From an uncultured cyanobacterium (GTDB lineage: Bacteria > Cyanobacteriota > Cyanobacteriia > Pseudanabaenales > Pseudanabaenaceae): a stretch of 64,000 bases of DNA. The notes under the pieces were generated by a model. It ran no database searches. It was not told the origin of the DNA and saw nothing but the letters and a program-made list of their open reading frames with translations. This document shows, piece after piece, positions 7,758-15,901 of this stretch. A program made the translations under genes and the position numbers. Where the stretch lies: contig OY969811.1 in the NCBI GenBank assembly GCA_963703315.1, positions 1,824,001 to 1,888,000 on the forward strand, in the 5' to 3' direction. Numbering within the stretch: position 1 is the first letter of the stretch; each line of letters opens with the position of its first letter.

Positions 7758-8684
7758 CTAAGTCTTATCTCGAAATATTGGCAAGACCTCGTTACAAAAA
7801 GCTTCGGTTGCTTTGGAGCGATAACGGTTGGGGTTACGGATTTGTAACAACATTCGCTTAATTACCACGCCATCAATGCGTACTTGTGTCAAAGCACCCA
7901 TCTGTAACTCTTTCTCGATCGCCGTTATCGACAAAAATGCTGCCCCTAATCCTGCCTGTACCGCATTTTTGATTGCCTCAATTGAGTTTAACTCCATCGC
8001 GATCGCTAGTTGACGTGGGTCAACTCCACTATCGAGCAAAACGCGATCAATTGCTTTACGAATCGTCGATTGCGAGTCAAGGTTAATAAATTGCAACTTA
8101 TACAACTCCTCGATTGGTAATGCCCCAACCTGAGTAAGTGGATGCGAAGTTGGTAGAATTAGCGCTAGTTCATCTTCGGCATAAGGTGTAATCTCTAAAG
8201 AATCTAGCAAATCCGCAGGAATCTCGCCCCCAATAATTGCCAAGTCTACCTGTCCATTCGCAACACTCCATGCCGTTCGCCTTGTAGAATGAACATGGAG
8301 TTGCACGGAAACTTCAGGATATTTCTTGCGAAATAATCCAATCATCTGAGGCATGAGATAGGTTCCAGTCGTTTGACTAGCACCTATAATTAGAGTCCCA
8401 CCATTAAGATTTTGCAAATCATCAATGGCGCGACAAGTTTCTTGACAAAGGCTCAAAATGCGATCGCCATAGGAAAGTAATAACTGTCCTGCCTCTGTTA
8501 ACTGCGCTCTGCGCCCCCCACGATCAAACAACGGCACATCTAGCTGTCGTTCTAGATGTTGAACTTGCAAGCTAACGGCTGGTTGGGACACATACAGGCT
8601 ATCGGCGGCGCGTTTAAAGCTACCCTCAGCAGCGATCGCCTTGAGAATGCGTAATTGGTCTAGAGTGAACGGTATGTCGATCAT
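7758..8684 (-). CDS. rbcR: LysR-family regulator, RbcR/Ycf30 type
   Basis: [37 protein letters not shown]-terminus and [10 protein letters not shown]-terminus typical of Ycf30. Confidence 0.88.
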
Positions 8685-8703
8685 AGAAGCAGCGTGAGAA
8701 AAA

Positions 8704-9804
8704 ATGAGTCGGGAGGTTATTCAAGATTTTTTGAATCTAGCGGGAGTTGTGGGAATAGCCCTCACCAACCGCCGTATGCGTCCCTATTTCTACGGACTAG
8801 ATGCCGTATTAGATAGGACTAAACAAGCATTAGGTCAAGGAGTCCTGCAAGTTGTTGAAAATGTCCCAGAAGGCTTTGAGTCCTTCGAGTTTCATTTTGC
8901 TGGTCATGTTGTCTTTATTTACAAGTTGACGCATGGTCTAGTACTGCTAGTACTGACGGATAGCGGACTGAAACTAGTTGACTATCGGCGAGGCATCACC
9001 AAAATCAAATATCTGATCGAAACAGATACATACAACACAGTCGCATACTTTAAGCTCTTATTGGGATCAGTAACCCAGCATTCTTTGCCAAATTCCAATT
9101 GGAATGCCAATACTCCACCTAAAGCAGATGCAGTCCCAATTCAAGACAAACTGGCTACAAATAGTTTGGGGGAAACTATTTCTAATCCTGATCTAGAGAC
9201 AACCGTACCGTTGTCTCAGGTTCCAGCATCTGACCAAAGAAGTGCAACTAACACTCAAATCAATAGAGTTGCTAGTACAACGGCAAACACCAATGCAAAT
9301 ACCAATACAAGCAGAACTGCCAATATCCAAACTCAACCAAATGTAACTAAGCCTCAAGCACCTCCAGCATCTGCTCCTATCTTCTCTGCCTCATCGACTG
9401 TTGCGAATAAAGTTGTTACTGACAACAAGTCTGCACAGGTTACAACTCCTTCTAAGTCAGTATCAGCGAAAACTGACACACAGGAGTATAAGTTAGATGA
9501 ACTTTTAGTCGCCTTAAACAAACTAAGCACTTTTACAACTCAGTATTTGGGCAAAGTCGTAGTTACCAACTATTGGAAATCTAGTCGTCCTGACATACCT
9601 TGGCTCGCAGAATTTGAAATCGATCGCAGTGGGCAAATATCTCATCCCAAACAAAAGGCGATCGCCTGTACCCCTGAACAACACCAACAGATTCAGTCAT
9701 GGGTAACCGCCTATATCAAACGCTGTAAACAAGTAATTCGTAATTTTGATCAAATGCTAGAGCAAGACTGTCTTGATATTCGCCAAAAACAGCTACTTCT
9801 CTAA
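8704..9804 (+). CDS. Hypothetical protein: N-terminal roadblock/longin-like domain, S/T/N/P-rich linker, C-terminal helical domain
   Basis: [12 protein letters not shown]…[25 protein letters not shown] pattern resembles the roadblock/profilin-like alpha/beta fold (inference). Confidence 0.6.
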
Positions 9805-9975
9805 CTATCTCCCCAAAACTATGGCGCACGCGGAGCGTGTGCCACAGTTTTGGAGTTGCTTTACGATGCTTAACAATTCTAAGCAATTTGGCGGGAACTA
9901 GTCTATATATACACATTAAATGGGTTAAACTGGTCTTTAATATTAAGGGGAGCGATCGCAAAGGCGAGCTAAACA

Positions 9976-10476
9976 ATGGCTAAGCGTGTAAGAATTGAGC
10001 CTATTGCCCAAATAGCAGATATTGCAACAAATGGTGCATTACTATCTGGCTTAATGGGAGATGAGCTAAGCATTTTAAAAGAATGTGGTGGTCGTGGTAT
10101 GTGCGCGACCTGTCACGTTTATATTCAGGATGGTATGTCATCTCTAAGCCCTATGGGTAAACGAGAGCAGCGCACATTAGAAGTGATCACAACCTGTAAA
10201 CCCAACTCTCGACTTGCTTGTCAAGCCAAAGTGATGGGTGAAGGAATTGTGGTCGAACTGCCTGTAGGTATGTATGTCCAATCGATTCAAGATATCGAAG
10301 CTCTGATTGGGCGACGATGTGAAAAAGCTCTACTTAGTCCGATTACTGGTCAGACTTTAGTAGAAGTTGGACAACTAATTACGCGATCAGTTGTGCGTCA
10401 ACTAGAAAATACTAATTTCAGTGTTGGTGAACAATTGGCAAATACAAAAAGAGCCGATATCTTTGAGTCAAAATAA
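9976..10476 (+). CDS. 2Fe-2S ferredoxin (adrenodoxin-type motif) with C-terminal extension, Slr0148-like
   Basis: CGGRGMCATCHV and SRLACQ. Confidence 0.9.
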   Translation: MAKRVRIEPIAQIADIATNGALLSGLMGDELSILKECGGRGMCATCHVYIQDGMSSLSPMGKREQRTLEVITTCKPNSRLACQAKVMGEGIVVELPVGMYVQSIQDIEALIGRRCEKALLSPITGQTLVEVGQLITRSVVRQLENTNFSVGEQLANTKRADIFESK

Positions 10477-10585
10477 TCAGATCATCTAGCTGAATTAAAG
10501 CCAGTTTGTGAAACGTCTATTATCCGATGCTTATTCTTGAGACTAGCTTTAAATTCAATAATTTTTTGGATAGGAGTATTTACTT

Positions 10586-11266
10586 ATGACTGTTGCTTTA
10601 GATCATCCCAATAGTGCAACCAAAGCCAAGAGAAAGAATAATCACTATAGCCTCCAAGATTTTTTCTTGCCTAATCTTGAAAAAGGTATCATCGAAGACT
10701 GGAATGGCGCTAGAAATATTCTGACCAGCGAAGACTTTATCATTGGGCTGCAAGAAGGTTTAGAAGATGAAGTCGGTGAAGCTTCGGCAGCCGTCATGTA
10801 TTCTGTCGGTTGTGAATGGGGACTACAGGATGCTTTGTTTTTTACAAAATGGTTTGAGCGAGACTTTGGACGCAGTATTCGCCAGACTAATTTACCTTTC
10901 TTGTTAGAGACTTGGTGGTGGCCCTTTACATCACAGGGATGGGGACGCTGGCAAGTGGATATGAGCGATCGCAAGCAAGGGTTTATGTTTATCAGCGTAT
11001 ACGACTCGGCAGTAGCCCGTAGTCTTGGTGATGTTGGTAAGCCCGTATGCCATTTGTATGCAGGTTTGTTTTCAGGATTTTTTACGCATCTCGTTAATAA
11101 AGAGCTAGAGTGCATCGAAATCCAATGTTATTCAATGGGTGAAAACTACTGCAAATTTCTGCTCGGTGGCAAAAATCGCATTGATGCTGCTTCTTTCTGG
11201 TTCAACGAAGGAGCAACGACTCGCGACATTGAAGGTCGGTTGCGAAATGGAGAATTTCTGAAATGA
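10586..11266 (+). CDS. V4R domain protein
   Basis: GWG motif, KPVCHLYAG, E.QCYSMG..YC metal-binding pattern. Confidence 0.9.
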   Translation: MTVALDHPNSATKAKRKNNHYSLQDFFLPNLEKGIIEDWNGARNILTSEDFIIGLQEGLEDEVGEASAAVMYSVGCEWGLQDALFFTKWFERDFGRSIRQTNLPFLLETWWWPFTSQGWGRWQVDMSDRKQGFMFISVYDSAVARSLGDVGKPVCHLYAGLFSGFFTHLVNKELECIEIQCYSMGENYCKFLLGGKNRIDAASFWFNEGATTRDIEGRLRNGEFLK

Positions 11267-11556
11267 GTAGCCCAGATTGGCGTTTGCAGACATTACGCAA
11301 TTTTTGGCAGGGTGTAAATTGGGAAAATCGGGCGATCGCGCAATTTGCCAGCGATCAACCAAATAGTAACAATGGCAAACCGCCAACGTTAAGTCTTCTG
11401 ATGTCGGTAAGGGAATATTTTCGAGCTATTTCTTGGACAGGAATTCCTGAAATTGCTGTAACCTCCCATGAGACTAAGCCCAATTCTCCCTCTATAGATG
11501 ATGCAAGCAAGGAAACCCTTGAAGACTTTCTTGACGATATTTCTAACTTCTTCTAA
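11263..11556 (+). CDS. Small hypothetical protein of the V4R cluster
   Basis: ATGA overlap with the upstream gene; internal repeat (LRNFWQGVNWE / VREYFRAISWT); acidic LEDFLDDISNFF tail. Confidence 0.75.
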   Translation: MSSPDWRLQTLRNFWQGVNWENRAIAQFASDQPNSNNGKPPTLSLLMSVREYFRAISWTGIPEIAVTSHETKPNSPSIDDASKETLEDFLDDISNFF

Positions 11557-11570
11557 CGCAAACCAGACCT

Positions 11571-12029
11571 ATGATTCCGAAGATTCAAGAGCTAATTAAC
11601 CAAGCCCAAGATCGTTATCTGGCGACGGACGAGTTGGGACTGATGGAAAACTATGTCAGTTCATTGCCCGATCGCCTCAAACTCTATAAACTAATTCGCG
11701 ATCGCGAAATTGATCTTTTGCAAACAGTTGCCGATCAAGTTCCGACAGAATTGCCTAACGTAACTGACGAAGATTTAGAAACTGGAATTAAAAGTTTAAT
11801 TTTGGTTCTGCGCTATAGCTCAATGGCAATGCTATTAAATGATGAAAATTTTTTAAAGGAAAGATTGCTTAATTGGCTAGAAGGCATGATGTCGATGCGG
11901 GATATGCGTCGTCTCAATGACACCCTCTACAAATTGCTGAACCAAGTTGTGCGTCAACAGTTTAGTCCCGCCCAAGTTGCATTAATTCAACCTTTGATTA
12001 CTGCTGCTCAAGTCACGCTCATCTACTAG
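11571..12029 (+). CDS. Phycobiliprotein/globin-like protein lacking cysteine
   Basis: LINQAQDRYLATDEL and LRYSSMAMLLND…L.WL resemble allophycocyanin-like proteins. Confidence 0.8.
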   Translation: MIPKIQELINQAQDRYLATDELGLMENYVSSLPDRLKLYKLIRDREIDLLQTVADQVPTELPNVTDEDLETGIKSLILVLRYSSMAMLLNDENFLKERLLNWLEGMMSMRDMRRLNDTLYKLLNQVVRQQFSPAQVALIQPLITAAQVTLIY

Positions 12030-12039
12030 AGACACCATC

Positions 12040-12696
12040 ATGATTTCCGTTGCCGATCTCATCAAGGAAAATCGCATCCCTGCCAACTTTTTTGACTACT
12101 ACTCCTACCTAAAAGGGGATCTCCAAATAGGACTGTTAGAAAACCGCCGAGGCGATCGCCTGATCGCAGTTCCTGAAACCTTAATCTCATCCCTTTATGC
12201 AGGATTAGCCAAGGAAACAGGACAAGCATCCAGACTAGTGTTGTTTAATTGCGGCAAATGGTGGGGCAAAAACTTTTACACGCGCTTTACAGAATCTCTT
12301 GAGGAATATTATTCACAGTCCCTTGCCGAAATGGATATGATCACCTTTATTCAAAGTTTAAAGGAATGTTGGCAAACTCATGGCTGGGGTAAGTTTGAGT
12401 TTGATCCGCAATACCAAACGCAAGGATTCGTTTTTGTCAAAACCTATAATTCTCCTTATGTCCGCGCAATAGCTGGTAATAATCAACCGACAGGGTATTT
12501 GGAAGCAGGAATTTTGACTTCATTTTTCAGTCGTTTGACAGGTCGTGAACTATTGGCTGTCCAGACTACCTGTGAGTCTTTAGGTGCTAGTAACAATCTG
12601 TATATCATCGGCTTACCCGAAAGATTACAAATCGTTGATTCACTTGTTGCGGATGGTTTAGATCACGACACAATTTTACAAAGGATTCTCAAATAA
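12040..12696 (+). CDS. V4R domain protein (second paralog)
   Basis: GLLENRRGDRLIA, CWQTHGWG, LEAGIL.SFFS.LTG, QTTCESLGA. Confidence 0.88.
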   Translation: MISVADLIKENRIPANFFDYYSYLKGDLQIGLLENRRGDRLIAVPETLISSLYAGLAKETGQASRLVLFNCGKWWGKNFYTRFTESLEEYYSQSLAEMDMITFIQSLKECWQTHGWGKFEFDPQYQTQGFVFVKTYNSPYVRAIAGNNQPTGYLEAGILTSFFSRLTGRELLAVQTTCESLGASNNLYIIGLPERLQIVDSLVADGLDHDTILQRILK

Positions 12697-12784: not shown

Positions 12785-12899
12785 TATAGCTATAGCCATT
12801 TTAGTTAAGACATAAAACCCAAAAGAGAGTTGCGGCGCGTAGCGCCGCAACTCTCTTTTGGGTTTTGGGTTTGTCTTAACATAACTGGCTACCGCTATA
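12785..12899. mobile_element. TATAGC-ended palindromic MITE
   Basis: tatagc…aaaacccaaaagagagttgcggcgc-gta-gcgccgcaactctcttttgggtttt…gctata; same family as 20548, 32206, 53380, 57580, 59572, 61641. Confidence 0.75.
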
Positions 12900-14111: not shown

Positions 14112-15901
14112 ATGATTAGCCAAACTTCACCAGTTAGTATCGATCCCCAGTTTTTATCAAGTCCCCATGTCATGCTATCGACTCTTCAAGCACTACGTCA
14201 GAAAGTTGAAAGCGAAGGAGCCATTACCTTTAATAAATGGCAATCAGGCATTCATCGGGCTGAATTTCTTCCAAGCGCCCTGAATCTAGCTCAATACCTT
14301 GCATTACGTCAGTATGACCTCCGCGACCTGCAATCCGCATTAATGCCTTGGGGCTTGTCCTCTTTGGGAAGGATTGAAGCAAGGGTATTACCCAATCTTG
14401 ATGCTGTGATTGCGGCGCTAGAAGTAATGTGTGGCAACTACTCCACGGAGAATTTTCACCGCCAACCACTAGAATCCTTTTTTGAAGGCAATCGTTTGCT
14501 TCTCCAGCATACCAAGGAGTTATTTGGGACAGCTTGTCCCCATCGGCGGGTCAGAATTATGGTTACATTGCCCACGGAAGCTGCAACTGACTATGAGTTA
14601 GTACGCGAAATTATCCGACGTGGCGCAAACTCTGTGCGAATTAACTGCGCCCATGACAATCCAGAAATTTGGGAATCCATGATCGCTCATGTTCGTCGAG
14701 CAGCGCAGGAGAATGGAACATCTTGTAACCCACATTCCGCTCTTATTTTACTGAAAAAAATATTTAGAAAACAAATCCTTATACAGTAAGTATTTTGGGC
14801 TTTCGTCAGAAAAATAACACTATCTTAATATTGTCAATAATGACGTACTAATAGGAGTCATTATCATTAATTTTCCAGAAAATCGCTGAAACCCTCATTG
14901 TCTCGTTGTAAATATTTTTAGGCCTCCATTACGAGCGGAATGTGGGTTGTAAAGTGATGATGGACTTAGCGGGACCCAAGATCCGTACGGGAGAAGTCCT
15001 TAAGCCACCCGATCGAAAGCGGGTATTTCGAGGGGATCGCATCTTGCTCTCGCGGTGTGTACCTAAATCTGCAAGTAAATTAGAAACGGTTGAGGCGATC
15101 GCATCACCTATAGACCAATTCCAAATTTGCTGTACGGTTCCCGAAATCCTCGATTTATTAGTAGTTGATGCACCCGTATATATTGATGATGGCAAGATTC
15201 GGACTCGTGTGGTTGATACCCAATATCGATTACCAGATGGGCAATTAGGACTGTTGCTTCAAGTAACCCATGCTAGCCCCAAAGGAGTCAAACTTCGTCC
15301 CGAAAAAGGCTTGAACTTTCCCAAAACAATTTTATCGCTCAGTCCGCTTACGGCAAAGGATTTAAGTGATTTGGATTTTGTCGCCATTCACGCAGATATG
15401 ATTGGTTACTCTTTTGTGCAGCACCCCACTGATATTGATTTACTGCAACAAGAGTTAAGTCTTCGCTTAGATGGCAGATCTCCTAGTCCTGCGATCGTGG
15501 CAAAGATTGAAACGGCGATCGCGGTTTCTAATCTTCCAGAATTAATCATCCATGCAGCGAGTAAACAATCATTTGGTGTGATGATCGCTAGAGGCGACTT
15601 AGCCGTTGAAATCGGATATCAAAGATTGACGGAGATTCAAGAAGAAATTCTTTGGATTTGCGAAGCTGCTCATGTGCCTGTAATATGGGCTACACAAGTG
15701 TTAGAAAGCTTGGTCAAAGATGGAGCGCCTTCACGCGGAGAGATGACGGATGCGGCTATGGCTGAACGCGCTGAGTGTGTGATGTTAAATAAAGGACCTT
15801 TTATTGCCGAAGCCATCACTATTCTTGATGATGTCCTAACTCGGATGGAAGCCCACCAGTCGAAAAAAACGCCCCAGTTACGAGCATTGCATTCTTGGTA
15901 A
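14112..15901 (+). pseudogene. pyk: Atypical pyruvate kinase interrupted by a MITE (fragments 14112-14728 and 14947-15901)
   Basis: IMVTLP and RINCAHD in the 5' part; MDLAGPKIRTG, AKIET, IARGDLAVE and WATQVLESL in the 3' part; removing 224 bp restores …TSC-KVMMDL… in frame. Confidence 0.9.
14729..14946. mobile_element. 218-bp non-autonomous element (MITE)
   Basis: Perfect 14-bp TIR CCCACATTCCGCTC / GAGCGGAATGTGGG flanked by direct repeat TTGTAA (14723-14728, 14947-14952); no transposase ORF. Confidence 0.93.

Follow-up and report, generated by a model that had tools for sequence, protein, structure and literature searches.

The slr0144-0149-type gene cluster of a Pseudanabaenaceae cyanobacterium has an apparently overlooked first gene joining a predicted roadblock-type domain to a constant helical domain

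Cyanobacterial gene clusters that encode an Fe-S protein, two V4R proteins and a bilin-biosynthesis-associated globin (BBAG) have been described, with slr0144-0149 as an example, and are reported to descend from the pre-PcyA bilin-biosynthesis clusters of heterotrophs; in their cyanobacterial form they come without a bilin reductase or haem oxygenase (PMC10151467; Rockwell, Martin, Lagarias 2023). The Slr0144-0149 proteins reportedly co-purify and are located at thylakoids (PMC9880817). The longer slr0144-0152 operon has been linked to how photosystems I and II (PSI and PSII) are assembled and repaired, although these roles may belong to the adjacent slr0150-0152 genes (PMC10151467). A conserved gene order including one unnamed hypothetical gene has also been listed, and fed5 was reported to be dispensable (PMC4284462); the kinase SpkG has been linked to Fd5 phosphorylation (PMC11863333). 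Here we describe a copy of this cluster in 64,000 nt of DNA (the window, by which we mean this whole stretch) from an uncultured Pseudanabaenaceae cyanobacterium (GCA_963703315.1, contig OY969811.1, positions 1,824,001-1,888,000, forward strand). The cluster itself is known: its five core genes are the published BBAG/slr0144-0149 cluster. What is new is the gene at their head, apparently an overlooked ancient member. The lead gene and the core comprise the following features.

8704..9804, + strand: lead gene, 366 aa; roadblock-fold N-terminal domain (N-domain), disordered linker and unnamed helical C-terminal domain (C-domain); no Pfam or NCBIfam family
8704..9069, + strand: residues 1-122, predicted to be a roadblock/MglB-like domain that carries one additional helix at its C-terminal end (Z-score and Foldseek matches)
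9073..9480, + strand: low-complexity Thr/Asn/Pro/Ser linker, residues 124-259, of varying length among homologues (predicted local distance difference test, pLDDT, <50; low conservation)
9481..9801, + strand: conserved helical C-domain with a YLG helix hairpin, W333 and C341; the module that stays constant across the family (pLDDT 95.6, conservation, distribution)
9976..10476, + strand: 2Fe-2S ferredoxin of Slr0148/Fed5 type, 166 aa (PF00111)
10273..10419, + strand: C-terminal module of the ferredoxin resembling RNA polymerase beta/beta' inserts (PDB profile match, E 1.5e-6)
10586..11266, + strand: V4R protein A, Slr0144 operon position, 226 aa (PF02830, E 6e-22; putative Zn site, Trp-rich motif)
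11263..11556, + strand: small Trp-motif protein, 97 aa, in a conserved position between V4R A and the globin
11571..12029, + strand: phycobiliprotein-fold globin of cyanobacterial BBAG type, 152 aa, no cysteine (PF00502, E 9e-9)
12040..12696, + strand: V4R protein B, Slr0147 position, 218 aa (PF02830, E 2e-9)

The six + strand open reading frames (8704-12696; 366, 166, 226, 97, 152 and 218 aa) are separated by 171, 109, -4, 14 and 10 bp, which confirms the six co-oriented genes, the last four tightly spaced, of the initial annotation. Everything that characterizes the published cluster is present, namely two V4R genes (one per clade), a cluster-type 2Fe-2S protein and a phycobiliprotein-like globin, and the corresponding Pfam matches lie above the cut-off (Fer2, E 8e-7; V4R, E 6e-22 and 2e-9; Phycobilisome, E 9e-9). 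Neither the lead gene nor the 97-aa gene matched anything significant in Pfam or NCBIfam. The relation to Synechocystis slr0144-slr0152 (the pap operon) that had been pointed out from the beginning is supported: V4R A, the small protein, the globin and V4R B follow one another in the same order, and a Fed5-type ferredoxin accompanies them. Unlike in the pap operon, the ferredoxin comes first in the window and there is no second globin, Fed4, TPR protein or kinase; the SpkG-like kinase and the second globin of this genome are located elsewhere. The likeness extends to the pre-PcyA (pre-1, pre-3) clusters, with their Fe-S protein, one V4R per clade and globin, a published origin of the core that had at first been passed over. 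As in the cyanobacterial form, no bilin reductase or haem oxygenase stands beside the cluster in the window, where the flanking genes are those of a LysR regulator and a CHAD protein. On the other hand, no lead gene, roadblock or other, is named in the main text of PMC10151467, and the cysteine of the CXRD motif, to which bilin is covalently bound, is missing from the window globin. The word roadblock is absent from the main text of both PMC10151467 and PMC13446030, and by title or abstract start we found no literature on the lead gene. Nor did a whole-word search return any paper combining V4R, roadblock and globin; subscription papers, figures and the Rockwell supplement lay outside that search and may show the gene unnamed.

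A structure model of the lead protein, built from 69 sequences, comprises a folded domain (residues 1-122), a disordered linker (124-259) and a second domain (about 260-366). The N-domain is predicted as helix-strand-strand-helix-strand-strand-strand-helix-helix, and the predicted structure thus contains the whole roadblock/LC7 fold (helix-strand-strand-helix-three strands-helix). Structure prediction and a Foldseek search of 8704-9804, which the initial annotation had proposed, gave roadblock proteins as the best matches of the N-domain. The closest is the Asgard roadblock 9jue (Z 11.3, root-mean-square deviation 3.0, 108 aligned residues), followed by Myxococcus MglB 6hjm (Z 11.0, deviation 3.1, 109 aligned); Foldseek ranks a Thorarchaeota roadblock first (E 5e-4), then LAMTOR and MglB. 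Longin-type proteins score lower (Mon1-Ccz1, Z 9.2; AP-3 sigma, 8.6; TRAPP core, 7.2 at rank 47), and those with Z 7-8.6 align from residue 10-14 of the N-domain; longin-type subunits begin with a strand and end in two C-terminal helices, and the N-domain does have two such helices. Of the roadblock/longin-like domain first ascribed to the lead gene, the roadblock half is supported and the longin half less so: judged by its predicted structure, the N-domain appears to be roadblock-type rather than longin-type. Like MglB, Asgard roadblocks and LAMTOR/Ragulator (Z 9.4-11.3), it has the five-stranded fold and an N-terminal helix. Unlike in these roadblock/LC7 proteins, there is no PF03259 match at E<=1 (in the genome search PF03259 finds only an MglB elsewhere), the domain has an extra C-terminal helix and is fused to the C-domain, and no adjacent GTPase was found. 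In the ESM Atlas the best score for the N-domain was 0.85 and that for the C-domain 0.84, both below the 0.9 level; a Robl_LC7 cluster at 0.81 (rank 20) is no more than a pointer.

The C-domain, which the initial annotation had passed over, is helical, has 105 residues and folds confidently (pLDDT 95.6). Its structure search gave no clear match (best Z 5.3, nothing from Foldseek at E<=0.001) and no DNA-binding fold. Likeness to H-NOX was considered and rejected: five H-NOX entries align over their own N-terminal 70-80 residues at Z 3.9-4.8, which is within noise, with no sequence support. The C-domain, not the roadblock, is the constant piece of the lead family. In a set of 301 genomes of the cyanobacterial phylum, where related genomes do not count as independent, a single query detected the N-domain in 11; V4R A is present in 57 and strong C-domain matches occur in 37, one further marginal partial match having been dropped. 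V4R A is present in 36 of these 37, as against a C-domain in 1 of 244 V4R-negative genomes, where the gene sits beside an SpkG-like kinase fragment. Counted by family, the C-domain occurs in 16 of 20 V4R-positive versus 1 of 20 V4R-negative families. The expectation that the lead gene would co-occur with V4R genes elsewhere is thus borne out, in the myxobacterial clusters described below as well. In other copies of the C-domain the roadblock is replaced by a receiver-like domain, by pentapeptide repeats or by a helical domain. The receiver-like domain scores below the Pfam cut-off and has Gly at what we take to be the place of the phospho-Asp.

Beyond these genomes, we searched 1.84 billion representatives with a profile and obtained 145 matches to the N-domain; 115 of the 141 newly found ones are at least 200 aa long, and 109 of the 115 carry the C-domain. 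Those close homologues of the lead protein that carry a name come from Pseudanabaena. With a C-domain profile in a longer-length search, the named proteins among the best 120 of 141 matches are all cyanobacterial; this search did not reach the pre-1 clusters, whose phyla lay outside the sample. The roadblock+C-domain gene adjoins the ferredoxin gene in 9 of the 10 other cyanobacteria that have the N-domain (one copy is broken by a stop). Of these ten, 6 have the V4R genes contiguous, 1 has them about 9 kb off and 3 have them elsewhere, and in the split clusters (G017, G247) the lead gene stays with the ferredoxin. The divergent LysR gene is visible in 8 of the 10 and probable in a ninth.

Two variant clusters were also seen. 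A second cluster in the window's own genome (G000:C1:1099587-1104186; L012:4588-9187) has two ferredoxin genes flanking a pseudo-receiver+C-domain gene, together with a V4R pair and a globin that retains the CXRD cysteine. Another (L041:4413-7344) holds a receiver-C-domain gene, an EAL phosphodiesterase-like gene and a receiver-ferredoxin fusion, hinting at a link to cyclic di-GMP.

The association is not restricted to cyanobacteria. One GC-rich match to the N-domain, at E 1.2e-7 with a cyanobacteria-only profile, leads to a Polyangiaceae metagenome-assembled genome (MAG) with the gene order of the window: lead, ferredoxin, V4R A, small gene, globin, V4R B, the lead overlapping the ferredoxin start. 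Since the identical order recurs there, the six-gene arrangement is not due to chance. Among 351 genomes of the myxobacterial phylum, strong V4R A matches occur in 5 genomes and 6 clusters, and in all 6 clusters the gene directly upstream of the ferredoxin encodes a C-domain (matches of E 8e-4 to 3e-14, with a profile that may contain a relative of the first MAG but does not contain the other five; a seventh locus has no upstream DNA). A bilin reductase and a haem oxygenase are encoded beside two of these clusters, a haem oxygenase beside a third and a Ser/Thr kinase beside three, and sigma-54 activators stand upstream of the cluster in myxobacteria. In a C-domain tree of 39 rows, the receiver forms make up one group (100/99) and the pentapeptide forms another (91/80), both nested among roadblock forms, while the myxobacteria stand apart (84/92) and the midpoint root falls beside them. 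This pattern of sequences is consistent with, but not proof of, an entry of the cluster into cyanobacteria with the lead protein in its roadblock+C-domain form.

The best explanation of these observations is that the window holds a copy of the BBAG/slr0144-0149 cluster that has kept its ancestral first gene. Cluster membership, folds, gene linkage and domain exchange are what the observations show. We give an even chance to the further proposal that the five proteins of the core make up a complex that senses a ligand and redox state, to which the lead protein is an accessory adaptor, its C-domain docking on the core, probably on the ferredoxin, and tethering an input domain. In what we infer about ligand, docking and output, the core would be a sensing module rather than an enzyme pathway. 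In V4R A, C155, E178, C181 and C189 are invariant (alignment of 22) and form a putative Zn site, and the protein also has a Trp-rich motif and both GxxxG helices; the Zn-site residues are not conserved in V4R B (also an alignment of 22). The two paralogues are about 24% identical and each groups with its own orthologue set. Against solved structures, the V4R A profile finds PoxR (E 4e-4) and MopR (E 4e-3), and also MJ1460 and CapR. The V4R sensor domains of PoxR/MopR/DmpR are thus its nearest solved relatives by sequence, with an invariant Cys/Glu/Cys/Cys site, although the window V4R proteins stand alone, without AAA+ and helix-turn-helix domains, and are two divergent paralogues. With its Zn site and PoxR/MopR-like pocket, V4R A would pair with V4R B and bind something hydrophobic, for which a bilin or another tetrapyrrole is a plausible candidate. 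Cysteine is missing altogether from the window globin, and with it the CXRD cysteine of bilin-binding BBAG-1 and BBAG-3, and covalent bilin binding at the CXRD site therefore cannot occur here; BBAG-2, which lacks CXRD, is reported to bind through a Cys-independent motif (PMC10151467). The globin and the small Trp-motif protein could be parts for non-covalent binding or scaffolding. The ferredoxin, with four cysteines in 29 of 29 aligned sequences and 42-68% identity to the cluster ferredoxins of other cyanobacteria and myxobacteria, may act as a redox and phosphorylation node, as its Synechocystis counterpart needs SpkG for phosphorylation. It would also be the most likely docking site of the C-domain, from which the long flexible linker would tether the input domain. 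The roadblock would be the oldest such input, for dimerisation or for binding an NTPase or other partner, swapped in several lineages for a pseudo-receiver, pentapeptide repeats or a helical domain.

Several observations weigh against this proposal. Of the 57 genomes positive for V4R, 21 gave no sign of a C-domain; 13 of these belong to a single family, and all 5 non-photosynthetic relatives, which have a bilin reductase gene in their clusters, are among them. Just 21 of 58 C-domain copies, in 16 of the 37 genomes, lie within 5 kb of V4R A. In clusters of the pentapeptide type, the C-domain gene stands ahead of V4R A and not of the ferredoxin; for genomes of pap order, none was seen within the operon at L071 and L074, the loci examined, and a pentapeptide-fused copy is found elsewhere in pap-type genomes. 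The evidence for docking on the ferredoxin is gene order. The C-domain tree has 110 columns, many open forks and a biased set of myxobacterial rows. Finally, the N-regions of the five other myxobacterial homologues match the roadblock profile no better than shuffles do, so the roadblock is demonstrated in one myxobacterial lineage only. The same holds for the gene upstream in L045; in all these cases roadblock-likeness is plausible by eye and was rejected.

Two side observations concern the ferredoxin and the globin. Nine of 11 PDB matches of the ferredoxin extension (10273-10419) are RNA polymerase subunits (beta' and beta inserts, best E 1.5e-6), and the extension is kept in all aligned cluster ferredoxins. 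Two stand-alone BBAG-like globins are encoded elsewhere in the genome (L023:4544-5029 and L024:5058-5528), one divergent from an NB-ARC gene, the other preceding a phycobilisome linker gene and a Crp-type regulator.

Alternatively, the cluster might encode a machine for photosystem assembly or pigment handling, its core delivering or modifying tetrapyrroles while photosystems are assembled and repaired; the ferredoxin would donate the electrons, and the lead protein would be a structural tether rather than a signal input. The operon's thylakoid location and its implication in PSI/PSII assembly and repair would fit, as would an ancestry in clusters that include haem oxygenase and bilin reductase genes, and a weak BchJ match of V4R A, below the cut-off. 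We nevertheless regard this as rather unlikely. The photosystem roles may belong to slr0150-0152 (PMC10151467), which are absent here, and fed5 is reported to be dispensable (PMC4284462). The cluster has been lost in many cyanobacteria and is present in non-phototrophs; the window globin has no Cys; and the swapped N-termini include signalling domains. The signalling flavour sensed in the initial annotation finds support in the pseudo-receiver, EAL, kinase and sigma-54 neighbours.

Less probable still, and in our view improbable, is that the lead protein is a co-inherited regulator that works in parallel (its target could be the kinase, or transcription in concert with the divergent LysR or sigma-54 activators) and makes no contact with the five core proteins. 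Two thirds of the C-domain copies are unlinked, the sole V4R-negative genome keeps its copy beside the SpkG-like kinase fragment, and LysR genes in cyanobacteria and sigma-54 activators in myxobacteria offer candidate partners. Yet the lead and ferredoxin genes overlap or abut in myxobacteria, the C-domain is almost wholly restricted to V4R-positive genomes, and no DNA-binding fold was found in it.

The initial annotation had envisaged, as a speculative analogy, a TRAPP-like assembly of Bet3 and longin folds sensing a lipid, tetrapyrrole or redox signal. In such an assembly the roadblock would pack on a V4R A/B dimer as longin subunits pack on Bet3-type ones, and the resulting platform would control a small GTPase or the traffic of membranes, thylakoids being one example. 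We consider this very unlikely. As in the TRAPP core and Asgard TRAPPC3 (PMC10933270), both the V4R/Bet3 and the roadblock/longin superfolds are present in the window. The homology of V4R and Bet3 is published (PMC2253512, PMC10933270), V4R A has both GxxxG helices, longin rows reach Z 7-9, and V4R genes are reported to be absent from most thylakoid-less Gloeobacterales (bioRxiv 2025.11.06.686923). The V4R A profile, however, finds phenol sensors and, in what is a sequence comparison only, no Bet3 or TRAPPC3 among its 10 matches at E<=10. The N-domain appears to have roadblock rather than longin topology. It is much rarer than V4R A (11 versus 57 of 301 genomes) and is replaced by unrelated domains while the C-domain stays, and the lead gene follows the ferredoxin, not the V4R genes, when clusters split; this exchangeability and this linkage make a TRAPP-like complex unlikely. 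The same gene order also occurs in a myxobacterium, without thylakoids. No small GTPase was found in 65 loci by a motif scan and phmmer, both of low sensitivity; the negative of the motif scan carries little weight, since the MglA-like and Rab-like proteins of this very genome escaped it. An MglB-MglA-like pair and a Rab-like GTPase are encoded more than 450 kb from the cluster. That the roadblock and the V4R dimer form a pre-cyanobacterial Bet3-fold platform coupling a bilin or redox signal to such an unlinked GTPase, with the C-domain (weakly like the distal subdomain of H-NOX) clamping the ferredoxin, is similarly unlikely. On present evidence, the cluster has no bearing on the origin of TRAPP.

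The MglB locus of this genome deserves separate mention. At G000:C1:1354448-1357565 (L077:4449-7566), a Protoglobin, a 152-aa protein without a Pfam family, the MglB roadblock, the MglA-like GTPase and a DUF4388 protein are encoded in a row. That 152-aa protein aligns weakly with V4R B over its full length (E 0.002-0.006, probability 6%; controls, E at least 0.37). It is found in 43 of 201 cyanobacterial genomes; of 20 short loci, 18 have it beside MglB and 13 beside MglA. Were it to have the V4R/Bet3 fold, this locus would fit the idea of a Bet3 fold, a roadblock and a GTPase better than the window does.

Two further features border the cluster.

7758..8684, - strand: LysR regulator, divergently oriented, with 19 bp between its start codon and that of the lead gene; a conserved neighbour and candidate regulator only
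12817..12863, no strand: long perfect inverted repeat 3' of the last gene, terminator-like or a repeat element

The LysR and lead start codons (window 8684-8704) are equally spaced in a congeneric genome. Being 19 bp apart, the two starts imply promoters that overlap coding DNA; a promoter scan was at chance level (9 vs 9.4). Contigs of relatives are present in three freshwater metatranscriptome runs of a single study. Some cover the ferredoxin, V4R A and small genes, or the globin and V4R B, but these do not show co-transcription, because one contig also crosses the divergent LysR-lead junction. Elsewhere, the region 3' of V4R B (L013, L014, L015, L016, L018, L021) has a conserved Ser/Thr kinase, an NnrU-family protein and a thioredoxin, sometimes then ndh genes. 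Further along the window (14112-15901), a pyruvate-kinase-like gene appears, from the translations, to be split into two reading frames (14112-14789 and 14942-15901).

The BBAG/pap cluster lies at the root of both phycocyanobilin synthesis and the phycobiliproteins. That it has an ancient extra member with exchangeable inputs, be they roadblock, pseudo-receiver or pentapeptide, argues that the cluster is regulated by a signalling module or is itself one. The C-domain, small, well folded and with no clear known structure, offers a concrete handle on the function of the cluster.

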